Shown piece after piece: positions 44,183 to 50,857 of a stretch of 64,000 nucleotides of DNA. The stretch's first letter is position 1; each line of letters begins with the position of its first letter. A model generated the notes under the pieces. The model made no database searches, was not told the origin of the DNA, and was given only the letters and a program-made list of their open reading frames with translations. This DNA comes from an uncultured Planctomycetota bacterium (GTDB lineage Bacteria; Planctomycetota; Planctomycetia; Isosphaerales; Isosphaeraceae), in assembly GCA_963737655.1 (NCBI GenBank), contig CAVTTN010000002.1:672001-736000 (forward strand), read 5' to 3'. Both the position numbers and the translations under genes were made by a program.

Positions 44183-46576
44183 ATGAACGCCTCGTTCGCC
44201 GCTTTCATGCTGGCGGTCGTCGTCCCTCCGGGGTTCGTGGTCGATCGCCGGGCCGAGGGACTCACGGGCGCCACGGCGATGGCGATCTCGCCCGATGGCC
44301 GCCTGTTCGTCTGCGAGCAAACCGGCGCGCTCCGGCTGGTGAAGGACGGCCGCCTCCTGGCCGAGCCGTTCGTCCGCCTTCGCGTCGATTCTCGCTGGGA
44401 GCGCGGGCTGATCGGCGTGGCGATCGACCCGGAATTCCCCCGCGAGCCGTTCGTCTACGTGAACTACGTCGCCGACGCCCCGTTCCCCCACCATCGGATC
44501 TCTCGGTTCACGGCCTCGGGCGACCGGGCCGATCCCGAATCGGAAAAAGTCTTGTTCGAGGGGGGCGACCAGGAGAAGCTCGGCGGCTCGGTCCCCTCCG
44601 GGCACCAGGGAGGCGCGATCCACTTCGGCCGGGACGGCAAGCTCTACGTCGCCCTGGGGGAGCAGACCGCCGGCTCGCCCTCTCAGGACCTCCATTCGCT
44701 CCTGGGCAAGCTGTTGAGGATCGACCGCGACGGCTCGATCCCGGCCGATAACCCGTTCTTCGATCGAACCGAGGGCAAGTACCGGGCGATCTGGTGCCTC
44801 GGGCTGAGGAACCCGTTCGGCTTCGCCGTCGATCCCCTCTCCGGCCGGATCTTCCTGAACGACGTGGGGGGCAACTTCGAGGAGATCAACGAGGCCGGGC
44901 CCGGCCGCAACTTCGGCTGGCCGACCGTCGAGCACGGCCCGACGAAGGATTCCCGGTTCGTCGGCCCGATCCACTGGTATCCGACCAGCTCGATCACCGG
45001 AGGGGCCTTCGCCCCGCGAAGCGGCCCGCTCCCGGCCGAGTGGCGGGGCCGGTATTTCTTCCTCGACTTCATGAAGGGCTGGCTCAGGACGCTCGACCCC
45101 GACCGCCCCGGAGACGTCCGCGAATTCGCCTCCGGGCTCGCCCGGCCGACCGACCTGGCCTTCGCCCCGGACGGTTCGCTGTATGTCTTGCAACGCGATG
45201 CCTGGGTGATCGACAAGGATTTCCGACCAGGGACCGGCTCGGTCCTCCGCGTCCGGTTCGAGCCGGGCCCTGGAACCCTTCCGGAGAGGCCGAAGGATGT
45301 CACCATCGGCCCGGTCCCGCCGTTCCCCACGTTCCTGCCGCCCCCGGGCCGCTTCACCGGGCCGATCCGGGTGAGGATCACCGCGAAATCGCCCGTTCGG
45401 TTCACCCTCGACGGCTCGGAGCCCTCCATCGAGTCGCCGATCGCGACCGGGCCAATCCCTCTGGATCGCTCGGCGACCCTGAAAATCCGCCCATTCCGCG
45501 ATGGCCAGCCGATCGGCCCCGCCCTGACAGCCGAATATCGCATCGGGGGCCGAACCGCGTTCGGGCTCGCCGATCGACCGGAGGCCCCGAGGCTCCCGCT
45601 CTCGCTCGACCCGAACTCCTGGCCGAAACGGCTCTCCGAGGTCGGGGCGTTCGCCGACCTCGCCGCGATGACCCCCGCCCCGGGCTTCGTGCCCTTCGCC
45701 GTGAACAGCCCGTTGTGGTCCGACGGCGCGGCGAAGCGGCGATGGATCGCGTTGCCCGGTGGTGCCACGATCGAATTCCGCCCGACCGGCGAATGGCGGT
45801 TCCCTCGCGGGACCGTCTTCGTGAAGCACTTCGAGATGCCCCGAGAAGGCGCCCCTCCGCGACGCCTGGAAACCCGGATCACCGTGGCCGACGGCTCCGG
45901 CCTCGGCGCCGCGGCCACCTATCGCTGGGGAGAGGACGGCCGGGACGCCGACCTCCTCGCCGACGGGCGAGACGAGGCCATCGCCACCTCTTCCGACGCC
46001 TCACGTCGTCAAACCTGGTCCTATCCCTCGCGTGATGATTGTTTGAAGTGCCACACCAGGGCCGCCGGCTTCGTCCTCGGCCCCAGCGCCCGTCAGCTCA
46101 ACGGGCCGTTTCGTTATCCGACGACCGGCATCGAGGACCATCAAATCCGCTCCTGGAGCGCCCAGGGGATGTTTAGTCGGGCGGTCCCGGACGAGGAAAT
46201 CCCGAAGTTAGCGAGGCTCTCGCCGATCTCGGACGAATCGGCGACGGTCGAGCACCGCATTCGGTCGTATCTCGATTCCAATTGCGCCAACTGCCACCGC
46301 CCCGGCGCGAACATCCCGGCGGCCTTCGATGCCCGATGGGACTGCCCCGAAGCCGACCGCAAGATCCTCGACGCCCGGACCGTCAGCGACGGCCTGGGGA
46401 TCGCCAATCCCAGGGTCGTGGCCCCGGGAGACGTCTCCCGGTCGATGATCCATCAAAGGATCATCCAGACCGAGAGGTACAAGATGCCGCCGGTCGGCAG
46501 GAACGTCGTCGATCGCGGAGCGGCCGACCTCCTGGCCGGGTGGATCGCCGGTCTCGGCGGCTCGAAGTCGAAGTAG
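44183..46576 (+). CDS. PQQ-dependent sugar dehydrogenase-like propeller fused to an FN3-like domain and a two-CxxCH cytochrome c domain
   Basis: ERGLIG; HQGGAIHFG.DG.LY; GLRNPF; RFTLDGSEP; PLWSDGA.K.RW; CLKCH; CANCH; MPP. Confidence 0.8.
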   Translation: MNASFAAFMLAVVVPPGFVVDRRAEGLTGATAMAISPDGRLFVCEQTGALRLVKDGRLLAEPFVRLRVDSRWERGLIGVAIDPEFPREPFVYVNYVADAPFPHHRISRFTASGDRADPESEKVLFEGGDQEKLGGSVPSGHQGGAIHFGRDGKLYVALGEQTAGSPSQDLHSLLGKLLRIDRDGSIPADNPFFDRTEGKYRAIWCLGLRNPFGFAVDPLSGRIFLNDVGGNFEEINEAGPGRNFGWPTVEHGPTKDSRFVGPIHWYPTSSITGGAFAPRSGPLPAEWRGRYFFLDFMKGWLRTLDPDRPGDVREFASGLARPTDLAFAPDGSLYVLQRDAWVIDKDFRPGTGSVLRVRFEPGPGTLPERPKDVTIGPVPPFPTFLPPPGRFTGPIRVRITAKSPVRFTLDGSEPSIESPIATGPIPLDRSATLKIRPFRDGQPIGPALTAEYRIGGRTAFGLADRPEAPRLPLSLDPNSWPKRLSEVGAFADLAAMTPAPGFVPFAVNSPLWSDGAAKRRWIALPGGATIEFRPTGEWRFPRGTVFVKHFEMPREGAPPRRLETRITVADGSGLGAAATYRWGEDGRDADLLADGRDEAIATSSDASRRQTWSYPSRDDCLKCHTRAAGFVLGPSARQLNGPFRYPTTGIEDHQIRSWSAQGMFSRAVPDEEIPKLARLSPISDESATVEHRIRSYLDSNCANCHRPGANIPAAFDARWDCPEADRKILDARTVSDGLGIANPRVVAPGDVSRSMIHQRIIQTERYKMPPVGRNVVDRGAADLLAGWIAGLGGSKSK

Positions 46577-46603
46577 GCGTCGGGGCGATGCGGCCCTCCG
46601 GGT

Positions 46604-47194
46604 TCAACGTTCCGCGCCCCGGCCCTCGGTGGGCTCGGATTCGCGCTTCGGCTGGACGTTCACCGTCATCGCCTTCCCGAGCAATCGGGGCAGGTGTTCC
46701 ACCGCCGTCTTGAGGTCCGCCTGGTCGTCATCGAGGTAGAAGGTCGTGGGCTCCCGGCCGCGAAGGGTCAGCGACCAGGAGGCGGAATGGGGCGCATCAT
46801 AAGTGCCCGACGGCGGGTCGAGCCGGGACTTGGCCACCTCGCCCGACCCGACCCGGAGGTTCGTCGGATGGTTGCCCACCGCCTTCGCCGGCCCCTTCGC
46901 GTCGAGCCGGCGCACCGCGGCCCGTTTGGTCAACCAGCCGAGCCCGCCGAGCAGGAGTATGATCGGGATGATCAGAAGCAGGGCAAAGCAACCGTCCGGG
47001 CCCTGCAAGCCCAGGTCCAGCCGGCCTCCGCGAACCAGCCCGAAGACCCAGCGGACCCGGATCAGGTAAAGGGCGTCCGGGCCGACATACACGCGATACA
47101 GGGGCCAGCCCACCTCACCCTTCACCCGGGCGTTGAAGGCGGGCCACTCCCCGAGGGCCCGGATTCGCTCGGTCCCCTCGTCTGGTTCCCCCAT
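46604..47194 (-). CDS. Hypothetical membrane protein directly downstream of the RT
   Basis: ATG 22 nt after the RT stop, GGAG upstream; strong TM CFALLLIIPIILLLGGLGWL. Confidence 0.65.
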   Translation of the reverse strand: MGEPDEGTERIRALGEWPAFNARVKGEVGWPLYRVYVGPDALYLIRVRWVFGLVRGGRLDLGLQGPDGCFALLLIIPIILLLGGLGWLTKRAAVRRLDAKGPAKAVGNHPTNLRVGSGEVAKSRLDPPSGTYDAPHSASWSLTLRGREPTTFYLDDDQADLKTAVEHLPRLLGKAMTVNVQPKRESEPTEGRGAER

Positions 47195-47216
47195 GTCTCG
47201 ATTCGCTCCGCCCGCC

Positions 47217-48557
47217 CTACCCGGACTGTTCCGGGTCCCGGTCCCTCCAGTCGATGCGACCGAACATCTCATGCAACTTTCGGCCCCGATCGGGATGAAG
47301 CGAGGCGACATGGGCGATCCGGCCCAGCAGATGCGCCCGGAAATCGTCGTGAGGCCGTCGATTCTGCCCGAGAGGGCCGTGCCTCACGCAGTTGTGAAGG
47401 ATCGCCTTCAACGTGTCGTAGTCGCCACGAACCACATTGGGCCGCTCGTTGAGCACCACGCCCGCGACCCGCTGGCGGACGCCCCGTCTCATGATCCGCG
47501 TCTTGCGCGTGTGGACCTCGAACCCCTCTTCCAGCGCGATGGCGCCGACCTGGATGGAGAATCGGCCGACGGATCGCTCGAAATCCCGATCGCCGGAGAA
47601 GGCCAGGTCGTCGGCATAGCGGGTGTAACGGGCCCCCGAGGACTCGGCCAGGGCGGAGAGGCGGACGTCCAGGCGATGGGCGGCCAGGTTGGCCAGGGCC
47701 GGGGAGGTTGGCGCCCCCTGGGGCAGGTGGGGATGCTCATGGAGACGGCGAAACCGCCAGGAATCGGCCGTCCGGGGAGGGGCCGCGGGATCGTTCCAGA
47801 CCGAGCCCGGCACGCGGTTGGTGGCCAGCCCCGAGAGCAAACGGGCCACCGGCTCGGGATAGCCGGCGGTCAGGAACAGGGCCGTCACCCGGGCCGAGGA
47901 GATCGTCGGAAAGAAGTCCTTCAGGTCCATCTTCAGCACCACGCGACGCCCCACGTGCGGATCGACGAAGGTGCGAATCGATCGACCCGGTCGAAAGCCG
48001 TGGACCGAGTCGTGAGGGGGGATCATCGCCACGATCTCGCGGAGGGCCCGCCTCTGGACCAGCTTCAGGCGAGGCCGGGGGGCTTCGACCAGGCGAAAGG
48101 CCCCCGATCGCTTGGCGACCCAGCGATACGAGTAGCGCCTCGGGGCACCCGCCGGAGACCTCCGCTCAAGCCCCCGGGGATCGGCCAGCCATTCCAGCTC
48201 GCGGAGGCCGATTTGGAGCTGATCGGCCAGGGCCGAGGGGGTCGTCAACGGCGGGACCGGCCAGGAGGACGGCAAGCCCGGGGCGGGCCACATCACGGCC
48301 GGCGGATCGAGCGGCCGAGGCCCCGTCCGCAAGTCGGGCAATCCGGCGCAACCGCGACAAAACCCCCGATCCCGCAGAAAGAAATCGACCAGCCGCCCCG
48401 AGGTCGGGCGAGTCGGAGTCGCAAATTCCACCAGGACCCGCCGGAGGAGCGAAGCCATCCACCGAGGCCGCCGACCCAGGGCCGATCGCGCCCTCTCCGC
48501 AAGGTCTTCCTTCCGCCAGGGGCCCAGGACCAGGGCCTCGGCCAGGCGACGAGCCAC
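47217..48557 (-). CDS. Retron-type RNA-directed DNA polymerase
   Basis: KRSG..R.VEAP...LK.VQR; HGF..GRS; DLKDFFPTI; LPQGAPTSPALAN; YTRYADDLAFS; QRVAGVVLN (VTG-like region Y). Confidence 0.93.
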   Translation of the reverse strand: MARRLAEALVLGPWRKEDLAERARSALGRRPRWMASLLRRVLVEFATPTRPTSGRLVDFFLRDRGFCRGCAGLPDLRTGPRPLDPPAVMWPAPGLPSSWPVPPLTTPSALADQLQIGLRELEWLADPRGLERRSPAGAPRRYSYRWVAKRSGAFRLVEAPRPRLKLVQRRALREIVAMIPPHDSVHGFRPGRSIRTFVDPHVGRRVVLKMDLKDFFPTISSARVTALFLTAGYPEPVARLLSGLATNRVPGSVWNDPAAPPRTADSWRFRRLHEHPHLPQGAPTSPALANLAAHRLDVRLSALAESSGARYTRYADDLAFSGDRDFERSVGRFSIQVGAIALEEGFEVHTRKTRIMRRGVRQRVAGVVLNERPNVVRGDYDTLKAILHNCVRHGPLGQNRRPHDDFRAHLLGRIAHVASLHPDRGRKLHEMFGRIDWRDRDPEQSG

Positions 48558-48581
48558 GCGGCGGGTTCGCGAAGGATAAGA

Positions 48582-48751
48582 CAGCGGCGGCGCTCCAACC
48601 CGTCTCGTCCGGCGTGAGCAGTTCTACGTGAAGCGTAGTCCCGCTCACGCCTCGCCTGGGACCAAATCAAACGCTCCCCCGGGGTAACCCCGGAGAGGTG
48701 GGAAGCCATCGCGAGACGGCCGAACCACCCGCTTGGAAAACGCCGCCGCTG
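48582..48751 (-). ncRNA. Putative retron msr-msd RNA
   Basis: Terminal inverted repeats CAGCGGCGGCG (48582-48592 and 48741-48751) extended by TCCAA/TTGGA; AAGC candidate branch G at 48732; two msr-like stem-loops (48697-48729, 48674-48697); msd-like hairpin 48607-48662. Confidence 0.75.
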
Positions 48752-48759
48752 ATCCGCTG

Positions 48760-48788
48760 AACATAAGGGCGACCTCGACGGATGTCAA
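48760..48788 (-). promoter_or_regulatory. Sigma70-type promoter for the retron transcript
   Basis: TTGACA (48788-48783), 17-nt spacer, TATGTT (48765-48760); predicted start near 48753, just before the first inverted repeat. Confidence 0.75.
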
Positions 48789-48967
48789 GGTCTTTCGATC
48801 CTTCCCGAACGACCGCAAAAGGGAGCAACACGGGGAAAGGGAACGTGCCGGAAAGCAGCAATTGCATGCAATGCTTCGCTCCGTCCCCCTTGCGCGCCCT
48901 ATACTTCCCCTATCGCCGCCTGCTCGTGGTCACGCATTGACCACGTCACGAGGAGGCCAAAGGTCTT

Positions 48968-50857
48968 CTACGGAGCCTTCCTGACCTGTTTTGTGATCCG
49001 ATGCGCGGTCGCCTTCTTGGCAACAGTTGCGGAGTTGGCCATCGGCAGCACGGGGTGACGGTTGAACTGGAACCGCCCCTGGAAGTCGCCCCCGGGTTGG
49101 GCGTTGCCGGTCGGGAACTTGCCCGTGAATTCGCCGTCGAGCGCCTTGCCCGCGAGGTCGACGATGCCTCCGGAATGGACCACGATCACGTATCGCCCGT
49201 GGCGCAGAGGGCGACCGCCGTTGATCGTCAGCGCCACGGTCCGCGACGTGCCGTCCAATCCCGAGACGCTCACGCCCGTGATCGCGACGGGCTTGTGACC
49301 GAACGATGAGAACGGGCCAAGCACCGCGTAATTCGCCACGGTGGTCAGCGACGCCAGGTCCAGGCCGTTCGGGGCGGAGAACGTGAGGAGCACTTGCCCC
49401 CTGGCGTATTGGACGGTCGCCGCCGTGATCTGGGGCCCGTCGCTACTGACCGGGGTACTGCCCGACGAACCACTTCCGGACGAATCGCTGCCGGACGATC
49501 CGCCGCCGGACGATCCGCCGCCGGACGAACCGCCGCCGGACGAACCGCCGCCGGACGAACCGCCGCCGGACGATCCGCCGCCGGACGATCCGCTGTCGGA
49601 CGATCCCGTGCCGGTGAGGAGGATTCCAACCTCGGCCGGGTTGGTTGTGACGGTCATCAGGTCGGCGAGGCCGTCGCCGTTGAGGTCGCCGGCCGCCAGG
49701 TCGCTCGCGCCATTGAACCCGACGCTGGGGACCGGGATGGGGGCGCTTGTGACGAAATGGCCATCGCCGCTCCCTGGCGCGACGCGGACCTCGTTCAGCG
49801 GATACGTCGGGACCGCCAGATCGATCTTGCCGTCGCCGTTGAAGTCGCCTGCCACCAGCGTGCCCGACGCGGCCCCGAACCCGACGAAGGCGTTGGGAAT
49901 TGCGGCGAACGTGCCGTCGCCGATGCCGCCCAGGACGATCACGCTCCCATCGTCCTGGTTCACGGCCGCCAGGTCGAGCTTGCCGTCGCCGTTGAAATCC
50001 GCCCGGACCAGGCTCGAGGATGCGAAGCCGATCGGGGTCGTCCCGCCCAGGCGGAACGTGCCGTCGCCGTTGCCCAGAAAGGTTTGTTCCGAGGTCGAGT
50101 TGAGCGTGACCCCCGCCAGGTCGAGCTTGCCATCGCCGTTGAAGTCACCGGCCACCAGTCCGGGCGCCACGGCGGTCGAGAGGCCGAGGTCCCCGGCCGA
50201 CCCCGCCGCGTGGAGCGTCCCGTCCCGCTCGCCCAGGAAAGCCAGGACCGGACCGGTCACCGGGCCGATGGGCGGAGGGGAACCGGGTTGGGCGAAGGGC
50301 GGCGGTGGGCCGGACATGAGCTTGGCCCCGTACGCCACGGCGAGGTCCGAGACCCCGTCGCCGTTGAAGTCGCCCGCCACGAGGCGCGTGGGGACGGGGT
50401 AGCTCGGGTCGATCACCCCGAAGCCCGGGGCCGTCGCCCCCAGCTGGAACGTGCCGTCGCCGTTGCCCAGGAACTCGATCACGATCGCGTTGTTGCTCGC
50501 GTCGACCCCCGTCGAGGCCACGTCGAGCTTGCCGTCGCCGTTGAAGTCCCCCACGGCGAGATTCCCGCTCAGGGCGGGCGTGGCCGTGTCAAAGGAGCCG
50601 ATGAACCCGCCCTTGCCGTCCCCCAGCAGGGTCGTGATCACCCCTCCCTGGGCTGATCCGTTGTATTGCGGCGTTTCCGTCACAACGTCGAGCTTGCCGT
50701 CGCCGTTGAAGTCGCCCGTCGCGACCGAATTCGCGCCGGTGGCCACCGGGTAGACCACCGCCGGGCGGAACGCAACCGTCAGGAGCAGACGGGCTTCGAG
50801 CCCGTCGAGGACCGGGCGAACGCTCTGCGGAAGTCGGTTTCGAGGCTTCAGGTTCAT
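48968..50857 (-). CDS. Secreted FG-GAP/VCBS-repeat protein with Gly/Ser linker
   Basis: LEARLLL export motif; seven (G/A)D(F/L)NGDG..D repeats; (SSGGG)n linker; C-terminal DL.G..LDGE...GG.F domain. Confidence 0.9.
   Translation of the reverse strand: MNLKPRNRLPQSVRPVLDGLEARLLLTVAFRPAVVYPVATGANSVATGDFNGDGKLDVVTETPQYNGSAQGGVITTLLGDGKGGFIGSFDTATPALSGNLAVGDFNGDGKLDVASTGVDASNNAIVIEFLGNGDGTFQLGATAPGFGVIDPSYPVPTRLVAGDFNGDGVSDLAVAYGAKLMSGPPPPFAQPGSPPPIGPVTGPVLAFLGERDGTLHAAGSAGDLGLSTAVAPGLVAGDFNGDGKLDLAGVTLNSTSEQTFLGNGDGTFRLGGTTPIGFASSSLVRADFNGDGKLDLAAVNQDDGSVIVLGGIGDGTFAAIPNAFVGFGAASGTLVAGDFNGDGKIDLAVPTYPLNEVRVAPGSGDGHFVTSAPIPVPSVGFNGASDLAAGDLNGDGLADLMTVTTNPAEVGILLTGTGSSDSGSSGGGSSGGGSSGGGSSGGGSSGGGSSGGGSSGSDSSGSGSSGSTPVSSDGPQITAATVQYARGQVLLTFSAPNGLDLASLTTVANYAVLGPFSSFGHKPVAITGVSVSGLDGTSRTVALTINGGRPLRHGRYVIVVHSGGIVDLAGKALDGEFTGKFPTGNAQPGGDFQGRFQFNRHPVLPMANSATVAKKATAHRITKQVRKAP
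49490..49605. repeat. 15-bp coding tandem repeat (SSGGG linker)
   Basis: CCGCCGCCGGACGA(T/A) repeated about 6-7 times. Confidence 0.85.

Follow-up and report, generated by a model that had tools for sequence, protein, structure and literature searches.

We have identified a retron on the minus strand of a 64,000-nucleotide (nt) stretch of DNA from an uncultured Planctomycetota bacterium of the family Isosphaeraceae (assembly GCA_963737655.1, contig CAVTTN010000002.1, positions 672,001 to 736,000; hereafter the window, with position 1 as its first letter). The locus is very probably a stand-alone clade-11 ("outgroup") retron cassette, in which an msr/msd RNA precedes a reverse transcriptase (RT) gene, with a membrane protein gene as a bystander. 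It is a new member of the catalogued stand-alone clade-11 retrons and is ordinary in kind. An initial annotation had described promoter, structured RNA, RT and downstream open reading frame (ORF), all on the minus strand, and this layout holds. Its proposal of an intact retron was borne out by an RT of retron type in profile, tree and fold and by a conserved, covarying msr/msd RNA. Its suggestion of an undescribed system failed, as the RT sits in the published effector-less clade 11, which the available text of Mestre et al. (2020; PMC7736814) characterizes as (msr-msd)-RT cassettes that stand alone, have no known function and may be domesticated.

The RT gene spans 48584 to 47217 on the minus strand, as do all features of the window below unless a strand is named, and encodes 455 amino acids (aa) when read from a CTG or 446 aa when read from the GTG at 48557. 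The ORF 48557-47217 had been annotated initially as a YADD RT, and the 446-aa protein does carry YADD, as residues 314-317, together with a KMD motif. The catalytic residues, D211 and YADD 314-317, are invariant; region X reads HDSVH (consensus HxAAH) and region Y reads VAG, with the key H and G retained. PADLOC profiles were run over the whole protein, and the best scores were obtained with RT_other (508 bits) and RT_outgroup (480 bits), followed by RT_XIII (307 bits); all of the top 25 matches among the 59 profiles were retron RTs. The same two profiles ranked first in 17 of 17 close homologues (58 RTs were scanned by PADLOC). Pfam returned RVT_1, and NCBIfam gave 161-175 bits to retron models, 51 to group II intron and 32 to the defense-associated RT (DRT) model DRT2, every score lying below its model cut-off. 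For an AlphaFold model of the RT (predicted local distance difference test score, pLDDT, 91), the 17 best fold matches were retron RTs, ahead of diversity-generating retroelement (DGR), group II intron and DRT enzymes. Phylogeny was inferred with FastTree for 74 RTs, of which 35 were drawn from 124 close RTs and 39 from 99 others; the 35 close RTs formed one branch (support 99) beside, yet apart from, type XIII, with clade labels taken from PADLOC profiles and the published clade-11 reference sequences standing outside the tree. Placement among group II intron, DGR or unknown-group (UG)/DRT enzymes was looked for in profiles, tree and fold, and the RT falls among the retrons.

We equate the PADLOC "outgroup" with the clade 11 of Mestre et al. 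because the SPIRE survey (PMC13712802) pairs clade11-A and clade11-B with the RNA models OutgroupA and OutgroupB in its available text. Those parts of the survey also count Planctomycetota members of clade 11 already. In a census table (bioRxiv 2024.01.25.577267; PMC10849725), the accessible portion lists 18 clade-11 entries, of which 17 are from Actinobacteria, none is planctomycete and nine have an RT-DNA vector; its text implies that the output of clades such as 11 is intermediate. Published or tested clade-11 members are thus mostly actinobacterial, unlike the planctomycete host here. In other respects the window locus resembles clade-11 cassettes, in that these profiles score best over the whole protein, RNA and RT stand by themselves, no accessory gene recurs and a defense context is missing. 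Type XIII retrons (Mx162, Mx65 and Sa163; clade 10), for which vertical inheritance has been reported, are the nearest other lineage on the tree and have an RT of similar length with an N-terminal extension. The window RT differs from them in an RT_XIII score lower by 170-200 bits, in its N-terminus and RNA, and in lacking a SWIM or HEAT/ARM partner. No recurrent neighbor of either partner type was found around the clade RTs, the single hit being a partial HEAT match in one of 16 loci, at a distance of 4 kb.

By its sequence and covariation, the upstream RNA is a conserved msr/msd with an a1/a2 repeat, msr hairpins, an msd stem-loop and a G opposite a G. Retron RNAs carry a branching G with an opposing G. 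The structured region of about 170 nt with closing inverted repeats that had been annotated was recovered as 48751-48582 (170 nt), closed by a perfect 11-nt inverted repeat that pairs 48751-48741 with 48592-48582. The 200-nt strand has a folding energy of -108.9 kcal/mol (z -4.7), equaled by 0 of 200 shuffles. In a consensus of 18 aligned RNAs, four helices were found with 94.9% of cells paired and two-sided changes at 24 of 36 pairs; none of 500 shuffles reached these values, and slid controls paired at 38-48%. The 5' arm of the a1/a2 priming stem lies at 48751-48733, as indicated by the fold and the inverted repeat, and 13 of the 15 pairs of its helix show two-sided changes. Directly 3' of this arm is the predicted branching guanosine, 48732, which is invariant in the 18 RNAs and would supply the 2'-OH primer as in other retrons. 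It is followed by msr hairpin 1 (48730-48697), whose sequence and length vary among homologues, and by msr hairpin 2 (48695-48677), which is conserved in sequence, paired at 100% among homologues and forms a clade signature. The msd template is placed at 48672-48600 by covariation and fold, with predicted ends. The opposing G, 48599, is likewise invariant in the 18 RNAs and directly precedes the 3' arm (48598-48582), which contains a Shine-Dalgarno-like GGAG (48596-48593) and an in-frame CTG (48584-48582). The predicted RT-DNA is approximately 65-70 nt, at about 48600-48670 on the plus strand (estimated ends), with a hairpin at 48611-48651 that includes a 4x4 internal loop (DNA fold z -3.4). 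An Rfam search with the RNA returned no relevant family.

The upstream structure is kept among close RT homologues, as indicated by the covariation and by the signature hairpin motif, which is present upstream of 116 of the 118 clade RTs with enough flank (the window locus counted), mostly 130-165 nt before the gene. The motif occurs in 0 of 70 other retron loci, this control consisting of 72 low-scoring rows minus two partial clade members. One of the two misses is L080, and in the other, L072, an insertion sequence has displaced the motif by 1.4 kb. This insertion (L072:199-1480, genome G024), which has a 398-aa ORF, lies two codons past the in-stem CTG and parts the RNA from the RT; we take it to be TnpB-like. 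In L196, which belongs to the same genus, the cassette is intact.

Transcription of the cassette is expected from a sigma-70-type promoter at 48788-48760, as annotated initially (TTGACA at 48788-48783, a 17-nt spacer and TATGTT at 48765-48760), with a start predicted near 48753. This is the sole promoter-like site across 45500-49800 (4.3 kb), for which shuffles predict 0.2 sites. A promoter with at least 8 of 12 matches located 15-75 nt ahead of the branching G was found in 36 of 98 clade loci and in 0 of 98 control windows.

The downstream gene (47194-46604) starts with ATG 22 nt past the RT stop, as had been annotated, and encodes a 196-aa protein of an unnamed planctomycete family with one hydrophobic helix (46987-46931; a single 19-mer at residues 70-88, Kyte-Doolittle 2.6). 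The initial annotation considered it the effector of a three-part anti-phage retron resembling type IV Ec48 (Retron-Eco6), in which RNA and RT are likewise followed by a membrane protein gene. This view draws on the 22-nt gap, on the GGAG of the membrane gene and the absence of a terminator-like site between the two genes, and on a genuine hydrophobic helix, a feature absent from most relatives. In the protein collection two relatives were found (69%, P0002; and 41%), and the strong helix is confined to the 196-aa protein (2.6) and P0002 (2.4), other members scoring at most 1.4, with one at 2.1. The claim nevertheless fails on conservation. Searched with a profile of the family, the 127 other clade loci, which include three from the same genus and 106 whose downstream flank reaches at least 600 nt, gave no match, so that the synteny proposed for close RT homologues is not conserved (0/127). 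The 30 sister-lineage loci gave none either, and the family was not found anywhere in genome G001 (96% complete). Conversely, neither RT nor noncoding RNA is present at 15 loci of its homologues, and three that were inspected in detail lie between what we presume to be housekeeping-type genes. Ec48 combines a clade-3 RT with a conserved two-helix effector, in contrast to the clade-11 RT and non-conserved one-helix neighbor of the window; RT_IV is outside the best 25 of the 59 PADLOC profiles, and the RT_IV-type loci L065 and L067 lie far off on the tree. The tight spacing is at background level for the clade: a same-strand gene follows the RT within 60 nt in 24 of 101 clade loci, and these genes are nearly all mutually unrelated; the largest cluster of neighbors around clade RTs covers 11 of 128 loci. 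The 196-aa protein looks like a bystander and not a conserved partner. An Ec48-like effector role for it is very improbable, and a recent local recruitment of the gene to the retron is given the same low weight. The lead of a retron with a new membrane effector is thereby removed as false.

Among 120 other host-family genomes, with 29 candidates scored per genome, 13 were found to carry the downstream family. Seven of these 13 carriers also hold the RT, always on a separate contig, and 34 of 41 RT genomes are without the family. The family was considered as a partner acting in trans and rejected (RT in 7/13 carrier genomes versus 34/107 others, p 0.13). No match to the 196-aa protein was obtained in Pfam, NCBIfam, PADLOC or solved structures, and a metagenome scan found no loci of it. 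In the ESM Atlas it matched unnamed clusters at 0.91-0.93; bacterial PH-like families appeared at 0.82 only and serve as a lead. At L307 (genome G143), three tandem paralogues of the family occur with no RT.

The start of the RT gene appears to lie inside the priming stem. The annotated RT ORF is real, and its GTG start at 48557 is likely 27 nt too late. Upstream of the GTG, the RT frame stays open as far as the RNA; there, the GGAG (48596-48593) is followed after 8 nt by the in-frame CTG at 48584, both within the 3' arm, and the RT more likely begins at this CTG, giving 455 aa. Start codons were surveyed in 110 non-redundant loci of 128, those without a motif, flank or N-terminal match having been dropped; a few automatic G assignments in this set are doubtful. 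An in-frame CTG, TTG or GTG located 12-20 nt past the opposing G was found in 29 of 35 loci that lack an ATG and in 9 of 75 that bear one. The frame of the triplet was tested because an NTG triplet also forms part of the stem: in-stem triplets were in frame in 25 of 27 cases in ATG-less loci versus 9 of 20 in ATG-bearing loci, with arm insertions able to shift the register of the triplet. Where an ATG is present, it peaks at +26/+27, directly beyond the 3' arm. Of 32 host-family loci, 20 combine the GGAG, the lack of an ATG and an in-stem triplet. The unpaired probability of the GGAG/CTG site is 0.01 in the folded transcript (opening cost 19 kcal/mol) and 0.43 without the 5' arm. These predictions tip the balance, by a small degree, toward a priming stem that serves as a translational lock on the RT. 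These RTs have probably been annotated short because their start codon likely lies in the stem, which matters when they are cloned for genome editing.

Under the mechanism that we propose, one promoter would drive a transcript that comprises the folded msr/msd RNA and, after it, the RT gene. Priming would occur on the 2'-OH of G48732, and the RT would use approximately 65-70 nt of msd as template for a branched hairpin DNA, as the anatomy of the RNA suggests. The ribosome-binding site and weak CTG of the RT are seen within the 3' arm, and a transcript folded as template may consequently be untranslatable; a given transcript could serve either as folded template or as message for the RT, not as both at once. 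Binding of the RT to the folded RNA would keep the lock shut, so the enzyme would stay scarce. The basic N-terminal domain would most likely grip the RNA or DNA product, and the product would act without a dedicated neighbor. A works-like analogy exists in the type VI retron Vpa2, whose hybrid RNA (bioRxiv 10.1101/2025.10.22.683967, available text) has hairpins that bury the ribosome-binding site of a toxin until multicopy single-stranded DNA (msDNA) frees it. The two systems share an RNA fold that conceals a start codon together with its ribosome-binding site. The locked gene of Vpa2 is a small toxin in separate hairpins with a helix-turn-helix helper, whereas in the window it is the RT, the lock is the a1/a2 priming stem and there is no helper. 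A literature search for an RT start site hidden in a priming stem found nothing, with subscription papers and older msDNA work thinly covered, and the portions of published clade-11 text that were available make no mention of an in-stem Shine-Dalgarno/CTG start or of the N-terminal domain.

The clade-specific N-terminal domain of the RT (48557-48333) consists of approximately 75 aa with conserved R22, R32-W33, R40 and R50-P51. Residues 1-75 form five helices in the model (pLDDT about 91), and the net charge is +8 here and about +6 on average over 103 members. A profile of the domain matched 937 representatives, and among the best 150 of these it occurs on these RTs only. One hundred of the same 150 end within 25 residues past the last RT-profile match, with no recurrent second domain seen, and the other 50 have tails that resemble frameshifted or unrelated sequence. 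No Pfam family was common to more than 1 of the 103 members, and Foldseek returned nothing under E 1.7. The best match among solved sequences was a designed repeat protein (E 0.0013), and the ESM Atlas search with the domain gave 0.77. A wide fold search ranked NKR-5-3B (Z 5.2, root-mean-square deviation 2.8, 56 aligned), Na-SLP-1 (Z 4.9) and saposin D (Z 4.3); the rows at Z 4-5 include several saposin-like and circular-bacteriocin folds and are within background for helical bundles. These searches establish neither a new nor a known fold. Nucleic-acid binding is the likelier role of the domain. We discarded a possible link of the domain to the sequence of the msd hairpin, as part of the motif persists in the sister lineage, where the domain is absent. 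Nothing relevant was found in the literature on retrons and saposins, subscription papers being thinly covered.

The RT is present in 42 of 121 host-family genomes, with one copy in each and variable neighbors. The clade is not represented among 50 viral-contig loci. A set of these viral-contig loci (L213, L215-L232 and L235-L238) carries retron-like RTs with a poor fit to any PADLOC type (best 167-250 bits), and five of them form their own tree branch (support 99). PADLOC was also run on the neighbor proteins of 16 of the 29 clade loci with long flanks: 7 of 140 proteins matched at 1e-10, all through partial or generic domains, and no defense-island signal was seen around these 16 clade loci. 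Judged by these neighborhoods, genomic context would appear to give no support for an anti-phage function; Millman et al. (bioRxiv 2020.06.21.156273) report two RT clades rarely near defense genes in the available portion of their text. Within the same genus, an empty-site check recovered only distant paralogues (35-44%) of a flanking gene.

A sister lineage (L263-L292, L078, L080 and L081) was found in a further planctomycete family of the same class, where 87 of 121 genomes have it, mostly in single copy (72 of 97 good genomes of that family). It shares the signature hairpin but differs in its N-terminus and has a longer msd stem, and it is often flanked by the same genes at a largely fixed site. 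Among its flanks are a presumed site-2-protease-like gene (16 of 32 loci) and what we take from motifs to be mutL within 1.5 kb (11 of 32). An unnamed multi-helix membrane gene follows the RT in 19 of 32 loci (L263:2875-3705, plus strand), with no match in Pfam or in the genome of the window. This gene was rejected as an effector, since it is family-core, occurring in 101 of 121 family genomes, many without the RT. The sister lineage looks like a near-core, vertically kept retron, and the overall distribution probably fits a domesticated cassette better than a defense island.

We tentatively favor, at somewhat less than even odds, a domesticated RT-msDNA particle, maintained at a low level, that would work as a decoy DNA or a sensor for host proteins that process DNA and whose genes lie at other sites. 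Several points weigh against this interpretation or the structural reading beneath it. The proposed cellular role is drawn from distribution alone, and the RT neighbors differ even among three same-genus genomes, a pattern that mobility or rearrangement would explain as well as domestication would. The PADLOC neighbor scan covered clade loci only. HDSVH and VAG are variant forms of regions X and Y in place of NAxxH and VTG. No terminator-like site lies between the RT and the membrane gene, and transcription from the retron promoter likely extends into the latter. The loci surveyed for start codons are kin, so that the counts are less independent than they look and the p-values too strong, and GTG 48557 is a usable fallback start here.

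An unlikely alternative to the domesticated particle is a defense retron with its toxic effector gene at another genomic site, the effector being checked by RT-msDNA in trans. Most characterized retrons work in this manner with a linked effector, Mestre et al. (PMC7736814, available text) leave trans effectors open for orphan retrons, and presence in the host family is patchy (42/121). No candidate has emerged, however: of 41 genomes with the RT, only 7 also carry the downstream family (p 0.13), and the membrane neighbor of the sister lineage also occurs in genomes without the RT. Slightly less probable is a self-contained abortive-infection retron, in which the cationic five-helix N-terminal domain would be a built-in, membrane-damaging effector that is held at a low level by the stem-locked CTG start and released when infection disturbs the RNA or msDNA. 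The restriction of the domain to these RTs among the best 150 of 937 matches, the recurrence of saposin-like and circular-bacteriocin folds among top wide-search matches, the average net charge of about +6, the locked ribosome-binding site and the precedent of RNA-locked toxin translation in type VI retrons are consistent with such a role. Against it, a Z of about 5 is background for a small helical bundle, Foldseek gave nothing under E 1.7, position-specific arginines are better suited to nucleic-acid binding, the N-terminus differs in the sister lineage and there is no defense-island signal. The related proposal that clade 11 as a whole is a single-gene system, combining the priming-stem lock with a cationic, saposin-like N-terminal domain of the RT as an effector freed by infection or stress, is doubtful to a somewhat greater degree; if true, the lock plus built-in effector would explain why clade 11 has no partner gene. 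We consider it improbable that the cassette is a functionless or selfish relic, an RT-RNA pair that lost a type XIII-like effector and is kept cheaply by self-silenced translation. Its sister position to type XIII, the missing partner and the occurrence of some copies with a split frame or an inserted IS element (L072) would suit a relic, but compensatory conservation of the RNA across phyla is strong, the catalytic motifs are intact and the related lineage is kept in single copy in most good genomes of its family.

The locus bears on what effector-less clade-11 retrons do, and raises questions regarding the block imposed by the stem on RT translation from CTG, the target of the N-terminal domain and the near-core sister lineage. 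Clade RT genes at L079, L082, L017, L210 and L176 are split by frameshifts beside intact RNAs, through either assembly error or decay. A second retron RT, of type XIII by profile (528 bits), is present in the same genome outside the window (G000:C2:6187509-6188468; L098); it lies after large repeat-protein genes, and its frame runs far past the usual end, perhaps through an assembly frameshift. No island was seen in the GC content around the window locus. Directly upstream of the retron promoter, 50857-48968 encodes an FG-GAP-repeat protein with a low-complexity linker of GGSSG type and an immunoglobulin-like end; no linkage of this gene to the retron was found in other loci.

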